This document shows, piece by piece, positions 2,938 through 33,208 of a stretch of 35,526 bases of DNA. The notes beneath the pieces were generated by a model. It was not told the DNA's origin, did no database searches, and was given only the letters and a program-made list of their open reading frames with translations. The position numbers and the translations under genes were made by a program. The stretch's first letter is position 1. Each line of letters begins with the position of its first letter. This DNA is from Patescibacteria group bacterium (GTDB lineage Bacteria > Bacteroidota > Ignavibacteria > Kapaibacteriales > Kapaibacteriaceae): the NCBI GenBank assembly GCA_044238605.1, contig JBIICY010000013.1, forward strand, positions 1 to 35,526, read 5' to 3'.

Positions 2938-4602
2938 ATGGCAACAACAATTGGTTCGGCAGTAACCCACGATCTAAACTTTGAATCAAATGCCGATGCG
3001 AACAAGCAGACGTTTCGCATGATCGACGGCGTCTCGCAATCGGTTATGCTTGGCGGTGGCAAGAAGTCTATTGAGCGCCACAAGGCCAAGGGCAAGCTCA
3101 CGGCACGCGAGCGCATTGCGTTGCTTGTGGACGAAGACAGTGCGTTTCTCGAGGTCGGACTCCTTACCGCGCACGGCATGTATGAGCAAGAAGGGGGCTG
3201 CCCGTCCGCAGGTGTGGTTACGGGCATTGGCATCATCCACGGACGCGAGTGCATGATCGTAGCAAACGATGCTACGGTAAAGGCGGGCGCATGGTTTCCG
3301 ATGACGGCAAAGAAGAACATGCGCGCGCAAGAGATCGCGATGGAGAATCGGATTCCGATCATCTACCTTGTGGACTCCGCTGGGGTGTTTCTGCCGATGC
3401 AGGATGAGATCTTCCCCGACAAAGAACATTTCGGACGTCAGTTCCGCAACAACGCCATGATGAGCGCTATGGGCATTCCGCAGATTGCGGCCATCATGGG
3501 CCCGTGCGTTGCAGGCGGCGCATACCTGCCCATCATGTCAGACGAAGCAATCATCGTCAACGGCACCGGCAGCGTCTTCCTCGCAGGACCTGCCCTTGTA
3601 GAAGCTGCCATTGGAGAGAAGACAGGCATAGAGCCCCTTGGCGGAGCAACAATGCACAGCACCGTATCGGGCGTGATCGATTACAAGGTTGACTCAGACG
3701 AAGAAGCTCTCTCGACCATTCGCTCTCTCGTTGAGAAGTTCTCGCCTACACTTGGCAAGAAGGATCTCTTCTCGCGCGTAGAACCACGCGAGCCAGCGTT
3801 TGATCAAGAAGAGATCTACGGCATTATGCCATCGGATAGAGCAAAGCCCTACAACACACGTCAGATCATTGCACGCTTGGTCGACGGATCAGAATTCGAC
3901 GAATACAAGGCCGGGTTCGGTCAGACCATCATCTGCGGCTATGCCCGCATCGACGGCTGGAGCGTTGGCATCGTGGCCAACAACCGCGAGATCTCGAAGT
4001 CAGGCAAAGGCGAGATGCAGGTAGGGGGCGTGATCTACTCCGACTCTGCAGATAAAGCAGCACGCTTCATTCTGAACTGCAACCAGCGCGGAATTCCACT
4101 CGTGTTTCTGCAGGACGTAACAGGCTTCATGGTGGGCACACGCGCAGAGCAGGGCGGCATCATCAAAGACGGCGCAAAGCTTGTTAATGCCGTCGCCAAT
4201 TCTGTTGTACCAAAGTTTACGATCATCATCGGCAACTCGTATGGGGCTGGCAACTACGCTATGTGCGGCAAGGCCTACGATCCACGTCTGATCTATGCCT
4301 GGCCAACGGCGCAGATCGCTGTAATGGGCGGCGCGCAGGCAGCAAAGACGTTGTTGACGATTAAGATTGCCACGCTTGAGAAGCAGGGCGAAGTGTTAAC
4401 GCCCGAGAAGCAGGCGGCAATGCTCAAGGATATACAAGCCAAGTACGATGCAACCACAACGCCGGTCTATGCGGCGTCGAAGCTCTGGGTAGACGGCATC
4501 ATTGCTCCAACAGACACGCGCAACGTTATCTCGCGCGGCATTGCCGTGGCATCGCATCAGGGCTCGATCCCCGAGCTCAAGACAGGCGTATTCCAGGTAT
4601 AG
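2938..4602 (+). CDS. acyl-CoA carboxylase carboxyltransferase subunit (methylcrotonyl-/propionyl-CoA carboxylase beta-chain family)
   Basis: In-frame ATG at 2938 inside ORF 2689..4602 gives MATTIGSAVTHDLNFESNADANKQTFRMIDGVSQSV... Hallmark carboxyltransferase blocks are present: KLTARERIALLVDEDSAFLE, GVVTGIGIIHGRECMIVANDATVKAGAW, MGPCVAGGAYLP and GNSYGAGNYAM. Size is ~554 aa. Confidence 0.8.
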   Translation: MATTIGSAVTHDLNFESNADANKQTFRMIDGVSQSVMLGGGKKSIERHKAKGKLTARERIALLVDEDSAFLEVGLLTAHGMYEQEGGCPSAGVVTGIGIIHGRECMIVANDATVKAGAWFPMTAKKNMRAQEIAMENRIPIIYLVDSAGVFLPMQDEIFPDKEHFGRQFRNNAMMSAMGIPQIAAIMGPCVAGGAYLPIMSDEAIIVNGTGSVFLAGPALVEAAIGEKTGIEPLGGATMHSTVSGVIDYKVDSDEEALSTIRSLVEKFSPTLGKKDLFSRVEPREPAFDQEEIYGIMPSDRAKPYNTRQIIARLVDGSEFDEYKAGFGQTIICGYARIDGWSVGIVANNREISKSGKGEMQVGGVIYSDSADKAARFILNCNQRGIPLVFLQDVTGFMVGTRAEQGGIIKDGAKLVNAVANSVVPKFTIIIGNSYGAGNYAMCGKAYDPRLIYAWPTAQIAVMGGAQAAKTLLTIKIATLEKQGEVLTPEKQAAMLKDIQAKYDATTTPVYAASKLWVDGIIAPTDTRNVISRGIAVASHQGSIPELKTGVFQV

Positions 4603-4606
4603 CCCC

Positions 4607-7273
4607 ATGATTAGCGAGCTGCAAGAAACCATCGGGAGCGAGCGCGTTTCGACGAAGCTCACCGAGCGTCTTGCCTATGCTCACGACGCATCGTTCTATA
4701 GGCTTGTGCCTCAAGCTGTGGTGCGTCCAACCACCGTTGATCACATCAAGCAGATCCTGCAGTGGTGCACGCGGACGTCTACATCGTGCACCTTCCGCAC
4801 AGGAGGCACCAGCATATCGGGTCAGGCCGTAACAGACGGCATCATCGTCGACCTCTCACGCGACTGGCATCATGTGGCTATTGCTTCTGATGCGAGCAGC
4901 GTTACCATGCAGCCAGGGATCACGGGTGCTCGGGTGAATGCCATGCTTGCCCCGTACGGACGCAAGATTGGTCCTGACCCCGCATCGCTCATCGCTGCGA
5001 TGATCGGTGGCATTGTTGCAAACAACTCAAGCGGCATGTGCTGTGGCACGGCGCAGAACTCCTACCACACCCTTGATGGCATGACGTATCTGCTTGCCAA
5101 CGGCGTGATGATCGACACACGCAGTCCCGATGCCGATGCAACCCTGCGCGAGCATGCACCAGAGATCCATGCCGATATTGCGGCGTTGCGTGATGATGTC
5201 CGCAACGATGCAGACCTCGTTGCAACGATTCGCAGAAAGTACCGGATCAAGAACACGATCGGATATTCCCTCAATGCATTTCTCGACGAAGACCAGCCGG
5301 CGCGCATCATTGCAAAGCTGCTTGTGGGCAGCGAGGGTACGCTTGGGTTTATTGACGACGTAACGCTGCGCACGGTTGCTGATGCAGCGATAAAGCACAC
5401 AGCGTTCATCGTCTACGACACGCTCGACGAAGCATGCATTGATGTGTCGTATTGGCGCGATGCCGGAGCCGCAGCGATCGAGATCATGGACGACGCATCG
5501 CTGCGCTCGTTTGCACACCTGCCAACCACGCCAGATCAGTATCGCATTGATAAACCCGGCGCAGCGGCGTTGCTTGTGGAGTTTCACAACTGCGAGCCCC
5601 CTGCAGACCCTCAGCGCAAGGTTGAATGGTCAACCAACCCCACTGAGCAGCGCGCACTGTGGAAACTTCGCAAGGGGCTTATGCCAACTGTTGGCGCAAT
5701 GCGCAAGGCAGGGCAGAGCATGATCAACGAAGACGTGGCCGTGCCTGTTGAGCATTTAGCGTCGCTCGTAAAAGACGTCCAGCAAGCGTTTCTCGACTTC
5801 GGCTATCATGATGGCATCGTGTTTGGTCATGCCAAGGACGGCAACATCCACTTTATCATGAACCAGTCGTTTAACGAGCAGAGTGAGGTAGATAGATACT
5901 CAGCATTCATGGACCGCATAGTAACCATCGTTATCGATCGGTATCAGGGATCGCTCAAGGCAGAGCATGGCACTGGACGTAACATGGCGCCATTTGTGCA
6001 GCATGAATGGGGCAAAGGTGCCTATGCCGTGATGAAGCGCATCAAGGCACTGCTTGATCCGCACGACATCCTAAACCGTGGCGTGTTGATGAACGAAGAC
6101 CACAGCGTGCACACCTCCAACCTGAAGCCCGTGCCGGCCTTTGCAGGGGAGGAAGAGCACCAGACCAACTTGTGTATCGAGTGCGGGTTCTGTGAGCACG
6201 TATGTCCTACGCGGGGTCATTCCCTTACGCCACGTCAGCGCATTGTGCTACAGCGGGAAATGGTAATGTCACAGAGTGACGCGGAGCGCAAGCAGATCCA
6301 GCGCGAGTACGAGCGAGATGGGGCAGACACCTGCGCGGTTGACTCCTTCTGTTCGGCTGTGTGTCCTGTAGGCATCGACACAGGTGCCATGGTGAAACGT
6401 CAGCGCGCCCGCAAGCGCACATCACTGCGCATTCCTGCGGGCATCATTGCGCGTAACATGCATCACGTGCGAGCGATCATGCGTGGCATGTTTGCGCTTA
6501 ACGCCACGCGCATCGCAAAGGGAGGCAAGCTCCTGCTTGGGTCGCACGTGCCACCTGTGATGCGCGAGCAGACGCAGCACGCTCAGCCGGATATGCTGTA
6601 CGTACGCACATGTGTAAGCTCGTGGCAGAGCAGATCCAGTGGACCTTCGATGCAAGAGCAGATCATAAACCTTGCTACGAAAGCAGGCATCAAGCTGAAC
6701 GTCCTCTATGCAACTCGTGGGTGCTGTGGTCAGCCCCTTGCCTCGAATGGTCAGCCCGAAGCTGCCAATCAAACCATGCACATCATGCTTGCCGACATCG
6801 AGCACGCTCTTGGCGGACGCACCATCCCTGTATTTGTAGACACCTCAACATGTGCCAGCGCCCTCGTAGCAGCAGCCAAAGCAAGGGGCATGGAGATCAT
6901 CGACCAAGTAGGCTTTGCAGAGCGCGTCTTAGAGCGAACAGACATCACACCAACAGACACACCACTCGTTCTGCACCCAGGCTGCGGCAGCGCCAAACTT
7001 GGCACCAGTGAGCGCTTCGAAGCAGTAGCGCGTAGAATCTCGAACAACGTTATCATCCCACCTTCAGCCACCTGCTGCGGCATGGCCGGCTCTCATGGCC
7101 TGTTAAATCCAGACATCGTTGCAAGTGCACTCTCAGCAGAACGCAAAGAGGTCCACAAAGCATGTGGCAGCACCGCAGCCATCGGCATCTCCTGCAACCC
7201 CATGTGCGAAGCCGCGCTCAGCAATACAATTGGTATCGAGTACAAGGGGCTGGTGGAAGTGATTGCTCGGTAG
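4607..7273 (+). CDS. FAD-binding oxidase fused to 4Fe-4S and CCG domains (YdiJ/D-lactate or D-2-hydroxyacid dehydrogenase-like)
   Basis: ATG at 4607 (MISELQETIGSERV...) lies 4 nt after the upstream stop. The N-terminus has a PCMH-type FAD domain (RTGGTSISGQAVTDGIIVDLS), then FAD-oxidase C. Two ferredoxin-like Cys clusters follow (CIECGFCEHVCP, CAVDSFCSAVCPVGIDTG) and Cys-rich CCG-like repeats near the C-terminus (ATRGCCGQPL, PGCGSAK, ATCCGMAGSHG). The architecture is the same as E. coli YdiJ (from memory). Confidence 0.7.
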   Translation: MISELQETIGSERVSTKLTERLAYAHDASFYRLVPQAVVRPTTVDHIKQILQWCTRTSTSCTFRTGGTSISGQAVTDGIIVDLSRDWHHVAIASDASSVTMQPGITGARVNAMLAPYGRKIGPDPASLIAAMIGGIVANNSSGMCCGTAQNSYHTLDGMTYLLANGVMIDTRSPDADATLREHAPEIHADIAALRDDVRNDADLVATIRRKYRIKNTIGYSLNAFLDEDQPARIIAKLLVGSEGTLGFIDDVTLRTVADAAIKHTAFIVYDTLDEACIDVSYWRDAGAAAIEIMDDASLRSFAHLPTTPDQYRIDKPGAAALLVEFHNCEPPADPQRKVEWSTNPTEQRALWKLRKGLMPTVGAMRKAGQSMINEDVAVPVEHLASLVKDVQQAFLDFGYHDGIVFGHAKDGNIHFIMNQSFNEQSEVDRYSAFMDRIVTIVIDRYQGSLKAEHGTGRNMAPFVQHEWGKGAYAVMKRIKALLDPHDILNRGVLMNEDHSVHTSNLKPVPAFAGEEEHQTNLCIECGFCEHVCPTRGHSLTPRQRIVLQREMVMSQSDAERKQIQREYERDGADTCAVDSFCSAVCPVGIDTGAMVKRQRARKRTSLRIPAGIIARNMHHVRAIMRGMFALNATRIAKGGKLLLGSHVPPVMREQTQHAQPDMLYVRTCVSSWQSRSSGPSMQEQIINLATKAGIKLNVLYATRGCCGQPLASNGQPEAANQTMHIMLADIEHALGGRTIPVFVDTSTCASALVAAAKARGMEIIDQVGFAERVLERTDITPTDTPLVLHPGCGSAKLGTSERFEAVARRISNNVIIPPSATCCGMAGSHGLLNPDIVASALSAERKEVHKACGSTAAIGISCNPMCEAALSNTIGIEYKGLVEVIAR

Positions 7274-9637: not shown

Positions 9638-11041
9638 ATGAATAATGCGACGAATAACAAGGCGGTACTGTGGCGATTAGCAATACCTGTTATCATCTTG
9701 ATACTGTCTACGATTTGCTTCGAAGCAGGTGTTGTAGTGCAGCACAGACCCGACATTGCATCAGAGGGGCTGTTTATGCACGTACTCTACGCGATGAGTC
9801 TGTTCAAAGTCAATGGCATCAACCTTGGCGTGCCGGTATCTGGTCCAATCTGGGCAATTGATCTTCTCTACGTTATGTATTTCGCTGCTCCTGCCGTTTC
9901 AATCAGCGCAATTCTTGAGGCCGTGTTTCGTGTTGCACGGCTTAAGCTACGTTGGTTTCTACTGCGTGGTGGCCATGCGGTAGTGCTTGGTGCGGGACGT
10001 GCAACGTCGGACCTGCCGGCTATTCTCGATGCTGAAGTTGAGTCAAGGGGCTGGTTTGGACTTGTCCGCAAATCGGTTCCAATTGTTATCGCAGACAAAT
10101 CAGAGGATGCGCTGCTTCGCAATTCAACGAGTATGCTCAAGATGCATCTTGATGCAACCGATCCAGCAATTGTTGACACATTAAACATGCGTCGTGCTAG
10201 GGTAGTCATGCTACTCACCGATGATGATCAGGCGAACATCGACGTGTATTTCCGCTTGCGTGAACAACTATCGTCAGTGCCGGAGGAGAAGCGTCCTGTG
10301 GTCTTCATTCGTGTACGCGACATGGACCTGATCCGTGTGCTGCGTTCATACAATACCTCCCCGAAGACGCGGTTTTTTAACGTCCACATCGAAGGCGTCC
10401 GCTCGCTCTTTGCTCTCGATTCATCGATCACAGCAAGCGAATGGCTTGTGCACGCCCGCGAGACAAACGAAGCCCTGTCAAAGAACTGGGATGCTGTTAC
10501 GCGCATCAAGGACATGCAGCCTCAGCGCATCGTAATGGTTGGGTTTGGACGCTTTGGCCAGCACCTGCTCGCCGAAATGATGTTGAATAATGATGGACAT
10601 ATGACGAAGCACCTTGAGTCGCTGGCAATCATCAGTCCAGACGTCTTTCATGGATGGGCTCACTTTGAGCGTCTACTGCTGTGCAACATCACCAATAGCA
10701 GTGCTCTACCAAACCCTGAACTGCTCTCAGGCACTCATAGCGATGTAGGGCTGCTGCATTCGCTCGCTCAGGAGTCCGCTAACCGCAACACACTCTTTAT
10801 CATTGGCACCGATGATACGCCTGCAAACATTCAAGCAGCATCGGTTCTCCAGCGCTTCTGTGCGGCACACTCATCACAACATCCGTCGCGCTCCACTATC
10901 ATGGTGCGCACAAACATGTTCAGCATGGCACACGAGCGTCTGCTCCATTCAGGTACTTCAGAGAATGTAGACTACGTTCTCCTGCCAACGTATCATATCC
11001 TCGGTACGTACTTCAGTCGTCGTATCAGAGAAGCGCGGTAG
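9638..11041 (+). CDS. MthK-like two-TM ion-channel homologue with tandem RCK/KTN (TrkA-N) domains and a degenerate selectivity filter
   Basis: Outer helix LWRLAIPVIILILSTICF. The pore region is FKVNGINLGVP where K+ channels carry TVGYG. Inner helix IWAIDLLYVMYFAAPAVSISAIL. Two Rossmann GxGxxG motifs follow (HAVVLGAGRATSDL and IVMVGFGRFGQHLL). Confidence 0.55.
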   Translation: MNNATNNKAVLWRLAIPVIILILSTICFEAGVVVQHRPDIASEGLFMHVLYAMSLFKVNGINLGVPVSGPIWAIDLLYVMYFAAPAVSISAILEAVFRVARLKLRWFLLRGGHAVVLGAGRATSDLPAILDAEVESRGWFGLVRKSVPIVIADKSEDALLRNSTSMLKMHLDATDPAIVDTLNMRRARVVMLLTDDDQANIDVYFRLREQLSSVPEEKRPVVFIRVRDMDLIRVLRSYNTSPKTRFFNVHIEGVRSLFALDSSITASEWLVHARETNEALSKNWDAVTRIKDMQPQRIVMVGFGRFGQHLLAEMMLNNDGHMTKHLESLAIISPDVFHGWAHFERLLLCNITNSSALPNPELLSGTHSDVGLLHSLAQESANRNTLFIIGTDDTPANIQAASVLQRFCAAHSSQHPSRSTIMVRTNMFSMAHERLLHSGTSENVDYVLLPTYHILGTYFSRRIREAR

Positions 11042-11105
11042 AGAGCAGCGAGCAGCGAATAGAAAGCAGCGAGCAGCGAGTAGCAAACAGCGAGTAGCGA
11101 GTACC
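11042..11105. repeat. AGCGAGY heptamer satellite (9 units) beginning immediately after stop codon
   Basis: agagcagcgagcagcgaatagaaagcagcgagcagcgagtagcaaacagcgagtagcgagtaccgagt, followed by the hairpin gtttacttcgtaaac. Confidence 0.85.
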
Positions 11106-11112
11106 GAGTGGT

Positions 11113-11298
11113 TTACTTCGTAAACAATGATGCTACGATCTGGCGGATCTCGTCTTGGGGATGCTCTTCGTTCGTTACTTCGAACGTAGTGAGTTGCGAC
11201 TTTCCTTGGCGTACATCCTTCATCTCTTGAAGAACTGCAACGAATCTGTCAAAGAAGTCGTCGGAAGCATCTTCTAGTTGTTCCGTGGGTCGTGCCAT
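11113..11298 (-). CDS. 61-aa acidic protein in the antitoxin position downstream of a RelE/ParE-type toxin; candidate non-canonical antitoxin
   Basis: MARPTEQLEDASDDFFDRFVAVLQEMKDVRQGKSQLTTFEVTNEEHPQDEIRQIVASLFTK. Overlaps the toxin ORF by 25 nt. I see no HTH or RHH motif. The AGCGAGY satellite begins 8 nt after its stop. Confidence 0.4.
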   Translation of the reverse strand: MARPTEQLEDASDDFFDRFVAVLQEMKDVRQGKSQLTTFEVTNEEHPQDEIRQIVASLFTK

Positions 11299-11630
11299 AG
11301 GTCTTCATCCTCTATATCGATTAGTGATAGGTGAATTAGATACGCACGTTGCTGTGGCAATAGATCTGGCTGGTCTCTTTTCCGGTAAGCAAGATACAAC
11401 ACAAGAAGCCGCTTTCTTCGGTCATAAGCGTATAGTATTCGTAGGCCTGATCGTGCACCAGTGTGATGTAGTGCATCAGGTGCGCGAATCTTGCGAATGC
11501 CACCAAGTCCTCGCATAAGTGCGCCAGCCTCTGGCGCATGGACAAGTCGTTCTAGGAGCATCTGTAGCGATTCTTGTGTGAAGTAATCAAACATTGATTC
11601 ACGAAACGCTTTGCTAAATGCAATCCTCAT
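11274..11630 (-). CDS. RelE/ParE-superfamily toxin (HigB2/Gp49-like)
   Basis: C-terminal block GLRILYAYDRRKRLLVLYLAYRKRDQPDLLP fits the RelE/ParE/Gp49 core (YRIlY..d.....v.il...hRk). The longest ORF runs to 11816, but ATGs at 11630 (MRIAFSK...) or 11594 (MFDYFTQ...) give a family-typical 106-118 aa. The 5' end lies in repeat copy B. Confidence 0.55.
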   Translation of the reverse strand: MRIAFSKAFRESMFDYFTQESLQMLLERLVHAPEAGALMRGLGGIRKIRAPDALHHTGARSGLRILYAYDRRKRLLVLYLAYRKRDQPDLLPQQRAYLIHLSLIDIEDEDLWHDPRNN

Positions 11631-11710
11631 GGAAACATAATACAGTCGTGAACAGAAAGGTATATCTACGTTCACTGTGTATTGTGACAACCAAAACGTG
11701 ACAATTGGGG
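11557..11710. repeat. copy B of the ~155-bp direct repeat (partner 7354..7508)
   Basis: See copy A. Read on the minus strand, the core contains TTGTCA-16nt-TAGATA, a sigma70-like -35/-10 pointing into the RelE/ParE-like gene. An imperfect inverted repeat ACAGTcgTGAAC...GTTCACTGT is also present. The two copies bracket 7509-11556. Confidence 0.9.
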
Positions 11711-11854: not shown

Positions 11855-12166
11855 GTGTTTAACATCATTGCAAGAAAAACCATCCTTGTATACGCGCGGA
11901 GGTATCCCAAGGCATCGAATGCCTTGTTCGCGTGGTACTATGAGATTGTCAATGCAGACTACAAGAACTGTAACCAGTTAAAGGCAGACCATCCATCTGC
12001 GAGTATTGTAGGAGATGACCGCGTGGTGTTCAACATTATGGGTAACAAATACAGACTCGTTGTGCGTATTGTGTTTGCCTACCGAGCAGTGCAAATCAAA
12101 TGGTTCGGCACCCACAAGGAATACAATGAGATCGATGTTCAAACTATCGACCCAAGGAGAAACTAG
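11855..12166 (+). CDS. higB: HigB-family type II toxin (mRNA interferase)
   Basis: KADHPSASIVGDDRVVFNIMGNKYRLVVRIVFAYRAVQIKWFGTHKEYNEIDVQTI matches the HigB signature (..NRVVFNIkGNkYRLIv.i.y....vyIrfiGTHaEYDkID). A GTG at 11855 gives the family-typical ~104 aa. The ORF-track ATG at 11750 would add 35 non-conserved residues. Confidence 0.75.
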   Translation: MFNIIARKTILVYARRYPKASNALFAWYYEIVNADYKNCNQLKADHPSASIVGDDRVVFNIMGNKYRLVVRIVFAYRAVQIKWFGTHKEYNEIDVQTIDPRRN

Positions 12167-12168
12167 TC

Positions 12169-12525
12169 ATGGAGCTACGAGTCATCAAGTCCGCTAGGCA
12201 GTACAACGAGTATCTCTCGTGGGTAGACGAACAATTCGACAAGAACGTAAAGCCAACATCGCCCGCAGGACGCAAACTCGATGTGGCTCTGGCATTGATC
12301 AAGCTGTATGAAGATGAGCACTATGCCATCCCGCACCCCGATCCAATCGAGGCTATCAAGGCTCGAATGCAGGAAATGGGGCTCCGCAATAAGGACCTTG
12401 TTGGCATCATCGGTAGTAAGAGTTATATCTCACTCGTGCTTAACGGGCACAAACCACTTACTCTTGATCTGGCAAAGGCATTCCATAAGGTACTGGGCAT
12501 ACCAGCAGACGTGCTGCTGAAGTGA
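12169..12525 (+). CDS. higA: HigA-family antitoxin (C-terminal HTH)
   Basis: Starts 2 nt after the higB stop. PHPDPIEAIKARMQEMGLRNKDLVGIIGSKSYISLVLNGHKPLTLDLAKAFHKVLGIPADVLL matches the HigA pattern (PDPIEAIKFRMEQ.G..QKDLA...G.KS.VSEILNKKR.LTL.MIRKL...L.IP.EVL) from memory. Confidence 0.8.
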   Translation: MELRVIKSARQYNEYLSWVDEQFDKNVKPTSPAGRKLDVALALIKLYEDEHYAIPHPDPIEAIKARMQEMGLRNKDLVGIIGSKSYISLVLNGHKPLTLDLAKAFHKVLGIPADVLLK

Positions 12526-12631
12526 AGTTCGTTCGCGAGTGTGCCGAGATACCAGCTACTCGCTGTTCGCTACTCGCGGCGTTTTGACCGGTGTTACACG
12601 AATTTTTACGAGATTTACCAAGGTACGTGTC

Positions 12632-12943
12632 ATGAATGGACCATTTACGATGCTCGATCACAACGTGCAAGAAAGATTCAATCTGGAAGAGGAGGGTTCT
12701 CTGATGAATGAGCTCCTATCAGATGATATCGATCGACAGCGCATTGCTGCTGCGTTTGTGCGTGCTTCATACGATGCTCGAGCTCGAGCTCGAGAGCATG
12801 GTACCAAGCTTGTGTACATGATTGATGGCAAGGTACAGCTTCTAGATCCTGATTCTCCACTGCTACTGGATCTGTCACCATTGGTGCCAATAGTTAAACG
12901 GCTTTTTCCGCTGCCGCCTGAAATGGAGCCTAAAGGGTTCTAG
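12632..12943 (+). CDS. small hypothetical protein, paralogue of 13931..14221, with internally duplicated C-terminal motif
   Basis: MNGPFTMLDHNVQERFNLEEEGSLMNELLSDDIDRQRIAAAFVRASYDARARAREHGTKLVYMIDGKVQLLDPDSP... It shares the DIDRQR.AAA.VRA....R..AR..GT.LVY..DG.V....PDSP core with the 96-aa protein downstream. The ATG at 12632 is in frame within ORF 12539..12943. Confidence 0.5.
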   Translation: MNGPFTMLDHNVQERFNLEEEGSLMNELLSDDIDRQRIAAAFVRASYDARARAREHGTKLVYMIDGKVQLLDPDSPLLLDLSPLVPIVKRLFPLPPEMEPKGF

Positions 12944-12964
12944 CCAGAGAGCAAGCACACCTGC

Positions 12965-13033
12965 ATGGCACAACGCCCGCTCACCGATCTTACCGAACTT
13001 GTCGCAATCGCAGATCGGCTGTTTCCGCGGTAA
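12965..13033 (+). pseudogene. in-frame orphan C-terminal module (MAQRPLTDLTELVAIADRLFPR*) of the paralogue family
   Basis: Same reading frame as 12632..12943, with a single TAG between them. The sequence matches the C-terminus of the second paralogue (ELPDLTELLALADQLFPRNS). Confidence 0.4.
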
Positions 13034-13063
13034 TCCGTCTTCTGTGATCCGCAATCCAAACAT

Positions 13064-13567
13064 TTATTCGCTTTCGCGGGGTACCCCATCCCTATTGACC
13101 CAAGGAGTAACTAGTCTTGGAGCCTTCAAGATTTCTAAAGTCGAAGTATCAAGTTTTCCATCGTAGTATTTTCTCACTGCATCTTCAAAACACAAATAGT
13201 CGGTGCTATTCTGAAAGTTACTGTTTGTCATCACTACCGCGTAGAATAGTGTCATCGATGAATGAAACTTCAGATCATCAGGAAACCCAAATATTTCCTC
13301 GGCAGTTCTTCCTTCAACGTTGTACGCTAAGATCTTAGTTAACTCCAGAAGTCTCATTGAAAGCAATTCATCCCTTAAATAGTGTTCTGCCTCTTCGAGG
13401 TTAGCAATCTCGTATTTTTTGGCGGTTTCAGATTTTCCTAAGCCAGCTATTTGTGGGAAAACAAACCACATCCAATGGCTCGTTTTTTTACCAACTTTCA
13501 TTTCTGCCAGAACTTCTTGGTAGCAACTATCTTGAGCAGTCTTGAATCTGTTTAAATCGTATTTCAT
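13064..13567 (-). CDS. DUF1810-family protein, AT-rich (likely horizontally acquired)
   Basis: MKYDLNRFKTAQDSCYQEVLAEMKVGKKTSHWMWFVFPQIAGLGKSETAKKYEIANLEEAEHYL matches the DUF1810 N-terminal signature (L.RF..AQ...Y..AL.E...G.K.SHWMWF.FPQ..GLG.S) from memory. GC is visibly much lower than the flanks. Confidence 0.6.
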   Translation of the reverse strand: MKYDLNRFKTAQDSCYQEVLAEMKVGKKTSHWMWFVFPQIAGLGKSETAKKYEIANLEEAEHYLRDELLSMRLLELTKILAYNVEGRTAEEIFGFPDDLKFHSSMTLFYAVVMTNSNFQNSTDYLCFEDAVRKYYDGKLDTSTLEILKAPRLVTPWVNRDGVPRESE

Positions 13568-13661
13568 TTTCTGCGCTGTTCAGAAATGCTTGTATTGGTT
13601 TCAGGCTTTGCGTTTGAGTCGATTCGATTGATAGACCAGCCCAATGTTTAGAAAATAGTGA

Positions 13662-13934
13662 TTGTGCTGCTTCGATCTCGCAAAGGTGGGGCGCATGGCT
13701 ATTGAACGCACAAAACAGCTGATTGAAAACCGTGACTCATTTGCAATCGAGACCACAATGTCTGGAACGGTGCTTTCTCAAACACTAGGGCAGGCTGCTG
13801 ATGCTGGGTATTATATTGCAATCAAACTCCTACGAGTAGAGACAGTAGATGTGTCGTCCAAACGCGTTGCTAGACGCGTCCAACAAGGTGGACACGATAT
13901 TCCAATGGCAGATCAGATGAGGGGGGGGCAATGA
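13662..13934 (+). pseudogene. zeta-toxin-family (P-loop kinase) fragment lacking the Walker-A N-terminus
   Basis: AIERTKQLIENRDSFAIETTMSGTVLSQTLGQAADAGYYIAIKLLRVETVDVSSKRVARRVQQGGHDIP resembles the C-terminal two-thirds of zeta-toxin/AAA kinase domains (..FafETTLSG......L.....GY.v.l.yv.l...el...RV..RV..GGH.IPe). A stop sits immediately upstream in frame, the start is TTG, there is no P-loop, and a G8 tract sits at the 3' end. Confidence 0.5.
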
Positions 13935-14221
13935 GTGGACCATCTACGACGCCGAATCCCAACAACCGCAGATTCTCCTCAGTGGAAGGGGAGGACTCGA
14001 TCCTGAATGATCTACTTTCAGGTGACATTGATCGCCAGCGCATGGCCGCAGCTATTGTCCGTGCTTATGCGCATGCCCGTGAGCAGGCTCGCGCATACGG
14101 AACTACACTGGTCTACTCGAAGGATGGGGTTGTAACAGAATACCATCCCGACTCACCAGAGTTACCAGACCTTACAGAACTGCTCGCACTCGCTGATCAG
14201 CTCTTCCCGCGTAACTCGTGA
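13931..14221 (+). CDS. small hypothetical protein, paralogue of 12632..12943
   Basis: MSGPSTTPNPNNRRFSSVEGEDSILNDLLSGDIDRQRMAAAIVRAYAHAREQARAYGTTLVYSKDGVVTEYHPDSPELPDLTELLALADQLFPRNS. Its ATG overlaps the zeta-fragment stop (caATGa). Confidence 0.5.
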   Translation: MSGPSTTPNPNNRRFSSVEGEDSILNDLLSGDIDRQRMAAAIVRAYAHAREQARAYGTTLVYSKDGVVTEYHPDSPELPDLTELLALADQLFPRNS

Positions 14222-14247
14222 TTGGTAATTGTTCTTTCGCTGTTTCG

Positions 14248-14265
14248 GGCACGATGTATCGTGCC
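14248..14265. promoter_or_regulatory. palindrome GGCACGAT-gt-ATCGTGCC between convergent genes (a second copy lies at 30194-30211)
   Basis: Perfect 8-bp arms. The identical arms recur at 30194..30211 with an 'at' spacer. It is a bidirectional terminator hairpin or a dimeric regulator site. Confidence 0.4.
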
Positions 14266-14272
14266 GCTATGG

Positions 14273-14312
14273 CCACTCGGCACTCGCTACTCGGCACTCG
14301 CTACTCGGTACT
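14273..14312. repeat. heptamer satellite ACTCGSY x5.5 (reverse-complement orientation of AGCGAGY)
   Basis: ccactcggcactcgctactcggcactcgctactcggtactc, ending at the stop codon of the GT2 gene. Confidence 0.8.
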
Positions 14313-15410
14313 CTAAAACGTCTGCCCCTTCCATTGCACTCGCTTGCGCATTGCCAGAATTGGCAGGATAAGCTCAAGAAGCAACAGGATGATGAGCGAG
14401 GGGGCGATTGCTGGTATGGAAGACCAGCGGCGAAGACGCATAACTGAGAGGCCGATCAGCACGCCGTCTCCAAGTGCACGAAGAGCGAGATAGGTGAGTG
14501 TCCAACTTGCTGACTGCGTCACGATGGAGAGCACAAGGGCCGCCCAGTAGGTAACACTGGTAATCACAAAGATGGTGGCGCGCCATCCAAGCTGTGTGCC
14601 GCCCCTTACCCAGCGCTGCTTCTGATGAAGGTACTCCATCAGCGTTGTGCAGGGAAGGGTCTCAACGGCGCTGTCGGCACTGCAGATATAGGATACGCTA
14701 TGTCCAGCTCGCACCATTGCCTGCAGGAGTGCAAGGTCTTCGGTGATGCTAAAACTTACTACGTTATATCCTCCTAGTTCGCGAAATGCAGCGGCATCGA
14801 TGGCAAGATTGTTGCCAAAGCATCCGATGGGGATGCCGTTTGTGAGCGATCCCTGTGCCATGCTGTGCGTGTAGAGCCACTCTACGTCCTGCAAGACTCC
14901 AAACGCTGAGGAATGCTCAATGGTGGTAAATCCGCAAACCATCTTGACGCGCTCGTTGTTGAACGGGGCAAGCATGGTGTGCACCCAGTCGGGGTCTACT
15001 ACGCAATCTGCATCGGTAAAAAGAAGTACATCTCCCGATGCACGGTCAACGCCTGCTTGAAGCGCTCCCGGCTTGCCGCGCAGATTCTCTCGTGCTTCCG
15101 ACTCCGTTCGGTGCACAGTCTTGATCACCGACCACGATGCAGCGGCCAGTTCAATAATGCTGCCGGTTGCATCTGTGCTGCGATCGTTCACAATGATGAT
15201 CTCCAGCAGGTGCTCGGGATAGGTTATCGTGCGCAGAGATGCAATACACCTGTGCAGGGTAGAGGCTTCGTTACGGGCTGGGATGATGATCGAGACGCGC
15301 CGCTGTGGAACGTTGTTCTGCTTGCGGATGGATGCCCGCAGCTGTCCGCTTAGAAAGTACACCAAGCGAAGGCTGTAGATGACGGCCGAGATGGTCAGGA
15401 CAAGTTCCAT
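14313..15410 (-). CDS. family 2 glycosyltransferase (membrane, processive type)
   Basis: The N-terminal GT-A domain carries the DxD region (VSIIIPARNEASTLHRCIASL...IIVNDRSTDATG...LLFTDADCVVDPDW) and QKQRWVRG (the QxxRW motif). Multiple C-terminal TM helices follow. Confidence 0.8.
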   Translation of the reverse strand: MELVLTISAVIYSLRLVYFLSGQLRASIRKQNNVPQRRVSIIIPARNEASTLHRCIASLRTITYPEHLLEIIIVNDRSTDATGSIIELAAASWSVIKTVHRTESEARENLRGKPGALQAGVDRASGDVLLFTDADCVVDPDWVHTMLAPFNNERVKMVCGFTTIEHSSAFGVLQDVEWLYTHSMAQGSLTNGIPIGCFGNNLAIDAAAFRELGGYNVVSFSITEDLALLQAMVRAGHSVSYICSADSAVETLPCTTLMEYLHQKQRWVRGGTQLGWRATIFVITSVTYWAALVLSIVTQSASWTLTYLALRALGDGVLIGLSVMRLRRWSSIPAIAPSLIILLLLELILPILAMRKRVQWKGQTF

Positions 15411-18525: not shown

Positions 18526-18608
18526 GATAAAGCAGCGAGCAGCGAGTAGCGAACAGCGAGCAGCGAACAATTAGACGTACTCGCTGCTCGCTGTTCGCTG
18601 CTCGCTAC
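18526..18608. terminator. 83-bp perfect palindrome built from AGCGAGY heptamers filling the gap between convergent stop codons (bidirectional terminator candidate)
   Basis: ataaagcagcgagcagcgagtagcgaacagcgagcagcgaacaattagacgtactcgctgctcgctgttcgctgctcgctactc. The left arm is AGCGAGY units, the right arm is their reverse complement, and the loop is aattagacgta. It abuts the stop at 18525 on the left and the stop at 18609 on the right. Confidence 0.7.
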
Positions 18609-19850
18609 TCATATCAGCATTCCCGCTACACACGCGGTTAGCAGATTTGCTAGGGCCCCAATGCACATGGCTTTGAAGCCAAAGCGGGCTACTTCGGCGC
18701 GGCGTTCTGGGGCCATCATGCCGTAGCCGCCGATTTGGATGCCGATGGACATGATGTTGGCAAAGCCGCACAGGGCAATAGTAGCAAGGCGCACAGTTCG
18801 GTCTGAAAGAGCCCCTTGTCCAACAAGGGTTGCAAGCTTGTCGTAGGCGATGAACTCTGTGAGTGAGATCTTGGTGCCTAAAAGAGATGCGAATGTGTGG
18901 GCCTCGTTGGATGGTATGCCAACGAGCCACGAGAACGGCAGAAAGATGTAGCCAAGGATCTGCTCGATGGATGTGCCAATACCCATCATCAGGAGTGCGT
19001 CCATGAAGGCAACGATGGCCTTAAAGGCAATGAGTACTACGATTACGTTTACGGCAAGCTTTACGCCATCAAATGCACCGCGCGCTATGGCATCGAGCAC
19101 GTTGCCGGCAGGCAATACGGGATCGAGGTTGGTAACCTCTTCACGTGTAAGTGCATCTTCTGGTCTGTCTGGCTCTGCGATCTTGGCAAGGGCCAGCGCC
19201 GCGGGTGCGGCAAGGATACTGGCGATCATCAGGTCGGTGGCCTGAATGCCCCTTGCCACGTAGACACCCATGGTAGAGCCGGCAATGGTTGCAAAGCCAC
19301 CTACCATCATGGCAAAGAGCTCAGAAGGGGCTATGCGGGGTATGTAGTGTCTCACGAGCAGCGGAGACTCTGTCTGACCCAAAAAGATCTCGCCAACAGC
19401 GTTGATGGACTCAATGGGAGATGTCTTCATTGTGCGTTCAAGAATGCGCGCTGCGATCTTCACGAACCGCTGCATGATGCCGTAATGATACAGCACGGCC
19501 ATGCATGCAGAGAAGAAGACAATAACAGAAGTTATCGTGAGGGCAAACTGAAAGCCCACTGCGGCAACGCCTTTTGCGCGTGGAAGATCGCCAAAGAGAA
19601 ATGCTGCACCCTCATTGGCAAAACCCAGAAACCATGTGATGCCATCGCCCATCCACTGGAAGAAGGCAATGCCCGGTGGAAACACCATTACAACAACAGC
19701 CAGTAGAAGCTGCAGGACAATGCCCCAGAGAACGGTTCTCCACGGGATGGCGCTTCGAGAAGATGACCAGATCCAAGCGATGGCAAGGATCACGAGTATA
19801 CCAAGGGCCGACTGAAGCTGGGGCATGGACGTTCCGCTATCGTTCTGCAT
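18609..19850 (-). CDS. nupC: NupC/CNT-family concentrative nucleoside transporter
   Basis: A multi-TM protein with the conserved CNT blocks GFANEGAAFLFG, FQFALTITSVIVFFSACMAVLYHYGIMQ, KTSPIESINAVGEIFLGQTESPLLVRHYI and ELFAMMVGGFATIAGS. An alternative start at 19826 (MPQLQ...) would remove the 14-nt overlap with dnaE. Confidence 0.8.
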   Translation of the reverse strand: MQNDSGTSMPQLQSALGILVILAIAWIWSSSRSAIPWRTVLWGIVLQLLLAVVVMVFPPGIAFFQWMGDGITWFLGFANEGAAFLFGDLPRAKGVAAVGFQFALTITSVIVFFSACMAVLYHYGIMQRFVKIAARILERTMKTSPIESINAVGEIFLGQTESPLLVRHYIPRIAPSELFAMMVGGFATIAGSTMGVYVARGIQATDLMIASILAAPAALALAKIAEPDRPEDALTREEVTNLDPVLPAGNVLDAIARGAFDGVKLAVNVIVVLIAFKAIVAFMDALLMMGIGTSIEQILGYIFLPFSWLVGIPSNEAHTFASLLGTKISLTEFIAYDKLATLVGQGALSDRTVRLATIALCGFANIMSIGIQIGGYGMMAPERRAEVARFGFKAMCIGALANLLTACVAGMLI

Positions 19851-22800: not shown

Positions 22801-23289
22801 TATCGCATTGCGCCGTGCCGTTTCTTCGTCACCGGCAAGCATTGGCGCATTGATGGGTCCGGCTAGACATGCCGACGTCGCGATGAGCCCCTCATGGTGT
22901 TCACGCAACAGGTCCATGTCGATACGGGGCTTGTAGTAAAACCCATGCGTATGGCCAATGGAGGTAAGCTTTACAAGGTTCTTGTATCCCGTTTCGTTCT
23001 TTGCCAGCAGCACCAGATGGTAGTAGTTCCGCTTCTTGCCAGCATCAACAACCTTCTCGCGGTCGGTGTGCTTCTTTACCGCGATGTAGACCTCGCAACC
23101 AATGATGGGCTTAATGCCCGACTTCTTGGCCTTTTTGTAAAACTCAAAGCAGCCGAACATCACGCCGTGATCCGTGATCGCCAGCGCAGATTGTCCGTCG
23201 GCCTTGGCCGCATCGATCAACGTCTGCGGACTCGCCGCAGCATCGAGCAATGAGAAGTGTGTGTGGTTGTGAAGGTGGACGAAGCTCAT
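19837..23289 (-). CDS. dnaE: DNA polymerase III alpha subunit
   Basis: 1150 aa. N-terminal PHP domain MSFVHLHNHTHFSLLDAAASPQTLIDAAKADGQSALAITDHGVMFG. The polymerase core is GPGRGSAAGSLIAYALRITDIDPLKFDLLFERFLNPDRVSMPDIDVDF. The OB-fold region lies C-terminally. Confidence 0.95.
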   Translation of the reverse strand: MSFVHLHNHTHFSLLDAAASPQTLIDAAKADGQSALAITDHGVMFGCFEFYKKAKKSGIKPIIGCEVYIAVKKHTDREKVVDAGKKRNYYHLVLLAKNETGYKNLVKLTSIGHTHGFYYKPRIDMDLLREHHEGLIATSACLAGPINAPMLAGDEETARRNAITLKEIFGDDFYIELQDHGLPEDKHVLEFAPRLAKELGIKIVVSNDTHYVKKDDAVAHNVLLHIQKDASFDRSQFDVKKDLRYRVPEMYMKTQKQMKDLFKAFPEGIESTVEIAEKVDLKIPTDLQLPQFPIPPESDATTLEDYLEELTMKGLEERYPVMTSEVLDRASFELQVIKRMGYAGYFLIVADFIRAARQMGVRVGPGRGSAAGSLIAYALRITDIDPLKFDLLFERFLNPDRVSMPDIDVDFSDDKRSRVIEYVKEKYGADSVAQIITFGTLSSRAVLKDVGRVLGIELSAITQITDKIPVIMGKVHTIAEAMELPELRWIKTTDDHRIKDLISYAQVLEGFARNSSLHAAGVVIAPGPISDFVPVYKTPNTEAATQYNMKDLEEAGLLKMDFLGLRTLSIIDQTLEQIKRNHGIDVDVDTIDFDDPKTYELFSRGYTQAVFQFESDPMQKALRELKPTVLEDLIAMNALYRPGPMDNIPDFIDRKHGRKPVEYLHPLMEPILNKTYGVIVYQEQVMQLVQTLAGFTLAQSDVMRRAMGKKDEKSMAEQRVKFIEGAKSNANIEEALASEIFDLIQKFASYGFNKSHSAAYSYLAFQTAWLKTHYPAEFLAANMTAELNDQAKIVALIDEAKRVNITVLPPDINRSMATFVAEGSSIYFGLAGIKGVGITAVESIVEARKDSPFTSIFDFAARVDKKVVNKRVLEALVCSGAFDSLRNGHRAQLFSVIDTAIHYASQVQDDALSAMGGGLFGDAEIERPKEPSLPVLEPWPERDRLRKEKEVLSFYVSGHPLQEYAMAVQSFSTINLARIDADMNGKGARICGLISDVRTRLDKRENTIAFVKVEQYQGSVEVIFWSDKYKQFAELIKPDTVVVVIGKCEVSGESIKITADDVLTLEQAEKKLVRGYVVCIRPDEHTDEQLKSLKQRCNTSDAQDQLSFVVMHPEGKRLYTTMSKIKYSQETTKFLCSTFGDANVLVDAER

Positions 23290-23382
23290 AGGGACAAGGG
23301 ACTAGGGACAAGGGACTAGGGACAAGGGACTAGGGACAAGGGACTAGGGACAAGGGACTAGGGACTAGGTACGGGGGTACGG
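23290..23382. repeat. 14-mer tandem satellite (GGGACAAGGGACTA x6) directly abutting the dnaE start codon
   Basis: agggacaagggactagggacaagggactagggacaagggacta... followed by gggactaggtacgggggtacgg. It occupies the entire space between the upstream small-gene stop (23383) and the dnaE ATG (23289). Confidence 0.9.
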
Positions 23383-28940: not shown

Positions 28941-29648
28941 TACACAAGGGTACGTGGTGCCCAATGCGCACGTAAGGTTCCTCGGCACTTCGTGCCTCGG
29001 AATGACGCCCGCGCAGATTGTTTTTAATTGGAGATCAGCGCGCCTACGGCGCGCTGATCCAATAACATTTAAAGCTGCACCAGCGTCATTCCGAGCGAAG
29101 CGAGGAACCTAGGGACAGGGCACAGGGGTACGTGGTGCCCAATGCGCACGTAAGGTTCCTCGGCACTTCGTGCCTCGGAATGACGCCCGCGCAGATTGTT
29201 GTTGATTGGAGAGCAGCGCGCCTGCGGCGCGCTGCTCCATTAACATCTTAAGCTGCACGAGCGTCATTCCGAGCGAAGCGAGGAACCTTGGGACAGGGCA
29301 CAAGGTATTTGGTCGCCCAATGTGCACGTAAGGTTCCTCGGCACTTCGTGCCTCGGAATGACGTCCGCGCAGATTGTTTTTAATTGGAGATCAGCGCGCC
29401 TACGGCGCGCTGCTTCATTAACATTTAAAGCTGCACGAGCGTCATTCCGAGCGAAGCGAGGAACCTAGGGACAGGGCACAAGGTATTTGGTCGCCCAATG
29501 CGCACGTGAGGTTCCTCGGCACTTCGTGCCTCGGAATGACGCCCGCGCAGATTGTTTTTAACTGGAGAGCAGCGCGCCTACGGCGCGCTGCTCCATTAAC
29601 ATTTAAAGCTGCACGAGCGTCATTCCGAGCGAAGCGAGGAACCTAGCA
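28941..29648 (+). repeat. tandem array of four ~178-bp palindromic structured elements with TIR-like ends
   Basis: Unit starts at 28951, 29129, 29306 and 29484. The left end GGTTCCTCGGCACTTCGTGCCTCGGAATGACGCC and the right end GCGTCATTCCGAGCGAAGCGAGGAACC are imperfect inverted repeats. The central hairpin stems are GATCAGCGCGCC-tac-GGCGCGCTGATC (unit 1) and GAGCAGCGCGCC-tgc/tac-GGCGCGCTGCTC (units 2 and 4). Unit 3 is a hybrid. Confidence 0.9.
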
Positions 29649-30420: not shown

Positions 30421-30500
30421 CCGTAATCCGTACCCCGTAACCAGTAACCAGTAACCAGTAACCAGTAACCAGTACCCCGTCCCTAGTCCCTAGTCCCTAA
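30421..30500 (+). repeat. heptamer satellites (CGTAAYC, CAGTAAC x5, GTCCCTA x3) immediately upstream of the S41 peptidase RBS/start
   Basis: ccgtaatccgtaccccgtaaccagtaaccagtaaccagtaaccagtaaccagtaccccgtccctagtccctagtccctaac, then ctcccGGAGGttctcATG (30516). Confidence 0.9.
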
Positions 30501-32939: not shown

Positions 32940-33008
32940 CAGCGAGTAGCGAACTATTAGCAGCGAGCAGCGAGCAGCTAGCAGCGAACAGCGAGTAGCG
33001 AACAGCGA
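32940..33008. repeat. AGCGAGY heptamer satellite beginning immediately after the stop codon
   Basis: agcagcgagtagcgaactattagcagcgagcagcgagcagctagcagcgaacagcgagtagcgaacagcgagtagc. Confidence 0.85.
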
Positions 33009-33009
33009 G

Positions 33010-33180
33010 TAGCAGAGCTCCCTCGGCACTATGTGCCTCGGGATGACGCCCACACGTTGCTTTTTAGGTAGGCGCAGCGCGCCTGCGGCGCGCTGCGCCA
33101 TGTTATAAACCGCCTCTAAGCGGCGTCATTCCGAGCGAAGCGAGGAACCTCGGCGTCAATCCGAGCGAAGCGAGGAACCA
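33010..33180 (+). repeat. solo copy of the TIR-bounded palindromic element (family of the 28941-29648 array), with duplicated right end
   Basis: Left end ctccctcggcactatgtgcctcgggatgacgccc. Central 13-bp perfect stem GGCGCAGCGCGCC-tgc-GGCGCGCTGCGCC. The right end ggcgtcattccgagcgaagcgaggaacc occurs twice (33125-33180). Confidence 0.85.
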
Positions 33181-33208
33181 TGTGTAACAATTATCCTGGA
33201 GTTATGTC

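Follow-up and report, generated by a model that had tools for sequence, protein, structure and literature searches.

Zeta-type kinases are a major class of toxins, and many of them are listed as orphans without an antitoxin. The toxins of the epsilon/zeta and PezAT systems are UDP-N-acetylglucosamine (UDP-GlcNAc) kinases of about 250-290 amino acids (aa), and their antitoxins are three-helix bundles encoded upstream. In Mycobacterium, AAA_33/zeta-like kinases of about 195 aa, described as non-canonical and PezAT-like, are toxic and are neutralised by a small neighbour (PMC5728571, PMC6362051); the antitoxin, a ParD-like protein, is again encoded upstream. Orphan toxins were noted in a 2023 survey of PezT/zeta homologues, in which new antitoxins were sought among upstream genes only (PMC10532202). 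Here we analysed a stretch of 35,526 nucleotides (nt), called the window throughout, which covers positions 1 to 35,526 of contig JBIICY010000013.1 (Patescibacteria group bacterium, assembly GCA_044238605.1, placed by GTDB in the Kapaibacteriaceae). An islet at about 11.1-14.3 kb carries two copies of a small gene, copy 1 (12632-12943, + strand, 103 aa) and copy 2 (13931-14221, + strand, 96 aa), together with remnants of P-loop kinase genes. We consider it probable that this region holds the decayed remains of two toxin-first two-gene modules, plus a fragment of a third, in which the kinase would be the toxin and the small protein the antitoxin.

In an intact module of this kind, the gene for a P-loop kinase of about 175-180 aa (of the Zeta_toxin/AAA_33 kind) would come first, and a gene for a protein of 65-100 aa would overlap it downstream on the same strand. 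The kinase would act as the toxin, and the small protein, translationally coupled to it, would be a directly binding antitoxin that blocks the kinase, which would make the module type II-like with the toxin gene first. Like the PezAT-like systems of M. tuberculosis (Rv0366c-Rv0367c) and Mycobacterium sp. MHSD3, with which it was compared by description, the pair combines a compact single-domain P-loop kinase matching AAA_33 and Zeta_toxin with a small overlapping neighbour; unlike there, the partner is encoded downstream, comes from a family without annotation and is predicted to fold differently. With epsilon/zeta and PezAT it shares the P-loop kinase toxin class, the intact homologues lying at or just above the Zeta_toxin cut-off, and neutralisation by a small helical protein is plausible, but the kinases are smaller (173-183 aa) and the downstream partner is a predicted helix-hairpin-helix protein. 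AvrRxo1-Arc1 of Xanthomonas likewise joins a zeta/polynucleotide-kinase-like toxin to a small binding partner, and Arc1 is reportedly encoded immediately downstream. HigBA, a toxin-first type II system, has the toxin-then-antitoxin order and the overlapping stop and start proposed here, and it co-occurs with kinase modules both in the islet and in the related locus L009, but HigB is a ribosome-dependent RNase and HigA a helix-turn-helix (HTH) protein, and the kinase/small-protein pair is homologous to neither.

Linkage of a small-protein family to compact kinases

The original prediction, made by a model from the letters of the window alone, had treated the small proteins as orphans that could not be placed in a family. 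This did not hold. When 1.84 billion representatives were searched exhaustively by HMMER with a profile of the two cores, 42 proteins scored at E ≤ 1e-3, 15 of them at E ≤ 1e-10. The family splits into a close group (about 90-125 aa) with a C-terminal helix and a distant group (62-75 aa), which shares the consensus D.D…AA..RA…ARE.AR..GT.LV…DG…..DPD. A profile of the distant group retrieved at least 1,487 clusters, all annotated as hypothetical and none with a Pfam domain, and the family is distributed over Acidobacteriota, Proteobacteria, Verrucomicrobiota and the Ignavibacteria/Kapabacteria group. Its members had no match in Pfam or NCBIfam, and the small protein itself gave nothing meaningful against Pfam, NCBIfam, PADLOC and PHROGs; a PADLOC match to REase_MTase_IIG (E = 8e-4, 14.9 bits) was obtained with one copy only and was taken as chance. 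A word-indexed homologue search with copy 2 found no match, though the sister-strain contigs carry the called gene, which makes this an index miss and not absence. The two top matches of the distant family, P0051 (133 aa) and P0052 (127 aa), hold two tandem small-protein domains per polypeptide.

Structure prediction of the small protein alone, one of the checks proposed earlier, gave a confident AlphaFold2 model for the core of copy 2 (117-sequence alignment; predicted local distance difference test, pLDDT, 95.9). In the model, a short helix is followed by a long one (residues 10-33) on which the conserved Ala/Arg face lies, then by a beta-hairpin (37-48) and a helix at the C-terminus (59-68). 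The predicted helix-hairpin-helix fold had no match in the PDB, and library and fold searches found no antitoxin-like domain. The family is therefore undescribed in the searched libraries, being without a Pfam, NCBIfam or PADLOC model and without a solved fold relative.

The earlier suggestion that the small protein has a zeta-type kinase as its cognate partner was examined in the neighbourhoods of the homologues, and in them the linkage to the kinase was conserved. A scan of genome contigs with alignment A7 (A5 and A6 being too divergent) yielded 12 loci, mostly from Ca. Kapaibacterium, Ignavibacteria, Melioribacter and metagenome-assembled genomes (MAGs) of Bacteroidota, with a Didemnitutus and a Hyphomicrobiales MAG in addition. 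A kinase gene lay directly upstream on the same strand and overlapped the small gene at 11 of these 12 loci, and the L015 contig carried two modules. No kinase gene was detected at the Geobacter locus L020, where the match to the small protein was weak (E = 1e-5 among the candidates only), lay under a longer open reading frame (ORF) of 418 aa in another frame, and was taken as spurious. In the distant group, all five annotated contexts had a Zeta_toxin/AAA_33 or P-loop gene directly upstream. We further scored 80 distant-group metagenome loci with a kinase hidden Markov model and found a full-length kinase at 48, an adjacent degraded kinase at 14 and a kinase cut by the contig end at 8, whereas 8 had no kinase and 1 had a match elsewhere; one locus had no room upstream, so that kinase and small gene were linked at 70 of the 79 assessable loci.

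The two genes also overlap in a regular manner. Among the 48 intact distant pairs (28 clusters at 90% identity), 42 have a small-gene start that overlaps the stop of the kinase by 4 nt, whereas in the close family the small gene begins within the kinase, with an out-of-frame overlap of about 80 nt with the kinase 3' end. There its ATG falls within the kinase codons for H/N/D-E-W (cATGArTGG) in 13/13 modules, although the T-ending codons needed for that ATG are a minority in the genes of this genome (0.43, 0.29 and 0.47), which argues that the ATG is selected as the true start of the small gene. In copy 1, a second ATG, at 12704, is an alternative. What lies upstream of the kinase varies from context to context (cation efflux, methyltransferases and others), so the unit would be a two-gene module, and its arrangement, in which two small neighbouring genes point the same way and the stop of one overlaps the start of the next, is that of generic type II systems. 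These comparisons of sequence and gene order strongly support the small protein as the partner of the kinase. Two proteobacterial-type contigs place the pair in particular settings: in L025 (1-5261) it sits among N6_N4 methyltransferase gene(s) and a gene for a ResIII helicase within one operon, and in L028 (686-5222) it adjoins DUF3375. These settings suggest an association with restriction-modification or defence loci.

Kinase identity and the case for a toxin

One kinase piece in the window, a central fragment of kinase gene 2 (13683-13934, + strand, residues about 53-132) that ends at a premature TGA and lies in the ORF 13662-13934, matched Pfam Zeta_toxin (PF06414) at E = 0.0058 and 16.5 bits over profile positions 80-152 of 199, below the gathering cut-off of 22.3 bits, and aligned with a full-length homologue by tblastn (E = 1.4e-17, residues 53-132). 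The zeta-like similarity named in the original prediction nonetheless stood in profile searches: the longer sister allele P0002 scored 27.3 bits for Zeta_toxin and passed the cut-offs of both Zeta_toxin and AAA_33, and the intact homologues lay at or just above the Zeta_toxin cut-off (L010, 22.5; L017, 25.1; L021, 31.1; L025, 45.6 bits), with AAA_33 scores equal or better. These intact kinases (173-183 aa) carry Walker A, (N/D)(A/P)D, ETTLSG and RV..RV..GGH.IP motifs. As had been noted for the fragment, Walker A is missing, and it is missing from both kinase remnants in the window; P0002 and the intact homologues have GPNGVGK(S/T)T. Searches of PADLOC and NCBIfam gave generic P-loop matches only. 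Membership of the kinase in the zeta group thus appears marginal; the label "zeta-toxin family" would be fair at the Pfam level and gives no basis for assuming UDP-GlcNAc kinase activity.

Several results weigh against a zeta-type toxin with the small protein as its antidote. The characterised zeta-type antitoxins (epsilon, PezA, ParD-like) are all encoded upstream, and the partner here is downstream; no epsilon/PezA-type antitoxin was found upstream of the kinase, where the genes vary, and the partner found instead has no Pfam or NCBIfam match. When a profile of 11 kinases was searched against PDB sequences, the RNA-repair kinase Pnkp1 (4xrp) was the best full-length match (E = 1e-5, positions 3-136), and zeta and PezT were absent from the best 60 of 101 matches at E ≤ 1. 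A tblastn search of plasmids with copy 2 and the distant member P0037 had no match, and scans of viral contigs with both subfamily alignments found no relatives. Finally, the small gene is kept open where the kinase is disrupted, but the loci were found through the small protein, which confounds this observation by ascertainment.

The main rival explanation is a conserved operon that is not a toxin-antitoxin module, in which the small protein would be an adaptor, a regulator, a substrate or an accessory subunit of a kinase that is not toxic (a repair or defence enzyme resembling polynucleotide kinases, for example), and in which decay would be the ordinary loss of a dispensable accessory operon. 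The Pnkp1 match speaks for it, as do T4 Pnk among the PDB matches, the absence of zeta and PezT from the best 60 of them, a PHROG polynucleotide kinase match (E = 5.5e-4), the pairs within methyltransferase/helicase operons (L025, L028) and the lack of an antitoxin-like domain in the small protein. However, an overlap of 4 or 80 nt and a very small partner are typical of toxin-antitoxin modules, the kinase is often disrupted selectively and resides in toxin-antitoxin islets, and the related mycobacterial kinases of about 195 aa are toxic by experiment (PMC5728571, PMC6362051). We judge this rival rather unlikely. A toxin would fit, if indirectly, both the frequent disruption of the kinase and its location among toxin-antitoxin and restriction-modification genes, and since the members of its family stand almost always directly behind zeta/AAA_33-type kinases, the small protein is probably the antidote of such kinases.

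We advance a broader claim tentatively, as one that is close to evenly balanced: the small protein may found a widespread, unannotated antitoxin family of new fold (at least about 1,500 clusters) that neutralises toxin-first compact P-loop kinases, whose substrate is perhaps not UDP-GlcNAc. The kinases are equally close to zeta toxins and to polynucleotide kinases and may thus act on another substrate, so that the target of these compact enzymes becomes a question in itself. Our literature searches for a downstream partner of zeta-type kinases found none, and an overlapping, unannotated downstream partner would be a concrete candidate antitoxin for a whole kinase clade. If true, this would explain part of the "orphan zeta toxins" reported from upstream-only screening (PMC10532202).

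Decay of the modules and coding status of the small genes

For this genome the message is more modest, in that the locus looks like a graveyard of such modules. Copy 1, too, had been regarded as an orphan, but a 3' remnant of kinase gene 1 precedes it (12577-12711, + strand, residues about 132-179 of 180, RRFDRCYTNFYEIYQGTCHEWTIYDARSQRARKIQSGRGGFSDE before the stop), which was recovered by tblastn with the L010 kinase (E = 1.4e-12), shows synonymous-biased divergence in the kinase frame and overlaps copy 1 out of frame by 80 nt. Cut to its last ~45 codons, which begin right after a block of heptamer repeats (12549-12580), this kinase gene is dead.

The C-termini of the close group fall into subtype A (…PLVK.lFPLPPE.EPPGF(E), then the stop) and subtype B (…DLTELLALAD.l.P…), and copy 1 belongs to the former and copy 2 to the latter. 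The original prediction had seen in copy 1 an internal duplication of its C-terminal motif across one in-frame TAG, and had read it as recent pseudogenisation or a readthrough candidate. The motif does occur twice with a single TAG between. However, the tail of copy 1 (…PLVPIVKRLFPLPPEMEPKGF) stops at the same point as in the homologues P0014, P0026, L013, L014, L015 and L018, and since this is a complete subtype-A tail, the TAG (12941-12943) is its native stop. The motif beyond it (12974-13030, + strand, RPLTDLTELVAIADRLFPR before the stop) matches the subtype-B tails of homologues, and at the DNA level it shares 80% identity with the 3' end of copy 2 as against 65% with that of copy 1. The most fitting reading is that it is what remains of the 3' end of another subtype-B copy; the sister strains are identical over this stretch and are uninformative there.

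The history of kinase gene 2 emerges from the sister strains, eight contigs (L001-L008) that are 96-98% identical to the window and share its layout but for two differences: they have a gene of 503-540 aa with a Por_Secre_tail domain, a cargo of the type IX secretion system (T9SS), between DUF1810 and the kinase, and their kinase gene (137-139 aa) keeps Walker A (GPNGVGKST in P0002). The T9SS-cargo gene lost from the window lies at 3310-4821 (- strand) in L001 and at 3310-4932 (- strand) in L007 (Por_Secre_tail, E = 1e-8), and its sorting domain also assigns the organism to the FCB group. In blastn comparisons with L001, L002, L006 and L007, the window was collinear except at 13617-13687, where a 71-nt filler stands in place of 1,871 nt that hold the Por_Secre_tail gene and the kinase 5' end with Walker A; the filler has no homology to the missing segment. 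The sisters thus have DUF1810, the Walker-A kinase and 1,871 nt more between them, so the window lost the Walker-A end by deletion and not through displacement by DUF1810.

A second lesion is common to the window and L001-L008, namely an internal kinase deletion that ends in a run of eight G (13921-13928, + strand) and shifts the frame onto the premature TGA. The natural 3' end of kinase gene 2 continues in the shifted frame (13921-14010, + strand, GGGNEWTIYDAESQQPQILLSGRGGLDPE, with its stop at 14008-14010), and the P0005 allele shows the undeleted C-terminus (…MRRFNRSYDNFFTHYIEVCHEWTIYDA…). The P0003 allele implies an in-frame run of seven G, and the tract seems to be length-polymorphic in the population (alleles P0001 and P0003). 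In consequence, the "caATGa" junction that had been taken for translational coupling is a by-product of the internal deletion and frameshift, the premature TGA overlapping the ATG of the small gene by chance. With its 5' end gone in a 1.9-kb deletion and its frame broken, the kinase gene of copy 2 is dead as well.

The DUF1810 gene (13064-13567, - strand; PF08837, E = 5e-49, 166 bits against a cut-off of 25, residues 3-147 of 167) is AT-rich, as had been noted, with 39-43% GC against 52-56% in its flanks. The account given in the original prediction, in which copy 1 underwent a recent internal duplication that left a pseudogene or a TAG readthrough and an insertion of DUF1810 cost the kinase its Walker-A end, draws on the repeated motif with its in-frame TAG and on an AT-rich gene 50-100 nt from the truncated kinase start. 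It is contradicted by the homologues, which have the very same end point as copy 1 (…PPGF(E)), by the second motif, which resembles copy 2 more than copy 1, and by the sisters, which keep DUF1810 and a Walker-A kinase with 1.87 kb more DNA between them, and we hold it to be very improbable. The last ~20 DUF1810 codons (13064-13123, residues 148-167) extend past the Pfam domain, on the strand opposite a remnant of a second higB-stop/higA-start junction, and the original DUF1810 stop seems to have been replaced.

That junction remnant (13092-13142, + strand) has 32 nt at 91% identity to 12144-12175, with a local alignment score of 53 against 23 ± 3 (maximum 36) for shuffled sequences. In L009, a higA homologue stands immediately upstream of the kinase. 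The second junction and this position of higA suggest that an ancestor carried repeated higBA-kinase-small-gene units. The earlier idea of duplication and decay of a module next to HigBA is borne out.

The kinase was disrupted in 4/11 close modules, 3/5 annotated distant contexts, 14/62 metagenome pairs and both window copies, and both small genes in the window remain open; the locus would thus be a natural record of a module in which the kinase is lost first and the small gene stays open. Similar decay was seen in independent lineages (P0011, 126 aa; L009, 3726-3999; L015, 2334-2601), where a large internal deletion joins the Walker-A end to the last ~40 kinase codons and leaves the small gene intact.

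The paralogy of the two small ORFs was confirmed: their 73-aa cores are 53% identical, and the alignment of the copies, offset by 1,299 nt, is free of gaps. Past the kinase stop (12712-12861), the cores differ at 11 first, 14 second and 34 third codon positions when read in the small-ORF frame; 20 of the codon changes are synonymous and 18 non-synonymous. Because of this third-position bias the core is protein coding under constraint and not a chance ORF. Three-frame translation revealed that both small ORFs begin inside the kinase 3' end (…EWTIYDA…GRGG…), which is read in a different frame and runs on to its natural stop at 12709-12711 in copy 1 and at the site given above in copy 2. Of the changes in the overlap (12632-12711), 9 are synonymous when the kinase frame is read, whereas in the frame of the small ORF 1 is synonymous and 17 are non-synonymous. 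The first ~25 codons of both small ORFs are alike mainly through the kinase 3' end in the other frame, and their common N-terminal "M.GP.T" owes most to the kinase motif EWTIYDA, of which it is a shadow. That the small ORFs are not genes at all, their similarity being nothing but such a shadow plus neutral duplicated DNA, would suit these first codons, but is contradicted by the codon-position bias past the kinase stop, by HMMER searches in which the family spans phyla, by the highly confident AlphaFold2 model and by the conserved ATG, and we give it practically no credence.

Other features of the islet and the window

The islet has a GC content of 39-51%, compared with 53-56% in the core genes on either side. 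Upstream of the first kinase remnant lie higB, which encodes a RelE-like toxin (11855-12166, + strand; Pfam HigB_toxin, E = 1.3e-26, 93 bits, cut-off 27) and is called as a 103-aa gene in the sister strains, and higA, which encodes an HTH antitoxin (12169-12525, + strand; Pfam HTH_3, E = 3.6e-5, 24.2 bits, cut-off 23), so that a HigB_toxin domain is followed by an HTH antitoxin. A HigB-2-like toxin gene (11274-11660, - strand) matched HigB-2 in a phmmer search of the PDB (5ja8, 8a0x; E = 4-6e-9) and PHROG 5869 (E = 5e-11), with no match in Pfam; together with a 61-aa ORF downstream of it (11113-11298, - strand), it is read as a third toxin-antitoxin-like pair in the islet. The sister-strain gene calls at this pair are broken up (61, 42 and 67 aa), and the pair may therefore also be in decay. 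Rfam gave no match on the islet or the whole window, and thus no evidence for an RNA antitoxin.

Inverted heptamer tandem repeats stand on both sides of the islet. The array at the left edge (11038-11116) is AGCGAGT-like, the one at the right edge (14272-14313) is its reverse complement (ACTCGCT-like), and the block at the junction of higA and the kinase remnant, mentioned above, also holds the reverse complement of the left-edge repeats. We considered these repeats as islet-specific recombination sites and rejected this, because the same repeats are frequent throughout the window and in related genomes; the heptamer repeat is a genome-wide intergenic element. Besides the three islet arrays, intergenic tandem arrays of 7-nt units lie at 260-407, 18531-18610, 23289-23369, 30421-30499 and 32929-33428, with units such as AATTACG, AGTCCCT, TAGGGAC, GTAACCA and CTCGCTG/AGCGAGT, often as inverted pairs around genes. 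Similar arrays occur in L009, L011 and L012 (related Kapaibacterium and Ignavibacteria loci), and they resemble the heptameric short tandemly repeated repetitive (STRR) sequences of cyanobacteria.

Two further repeat regions were observed in the window. At 28943-29646 a 178-nt unit is repeated so that four copies stand in tandem (93% matches), each with a GC-rich palindrome (GAGCAGCGCGCCTACGGCGCGCTGCTC) and the motif GTCATTCCGAGCGAAGCGAGGAACC, and this repeat had no Rfam match at the gathering threshold. An ORF of 489 aa (33209-34678, + strand) has its predicted start inside an array of four 42-nt units and heptamers (33263-33428), and its true start therefore probably lies downstream of the array.

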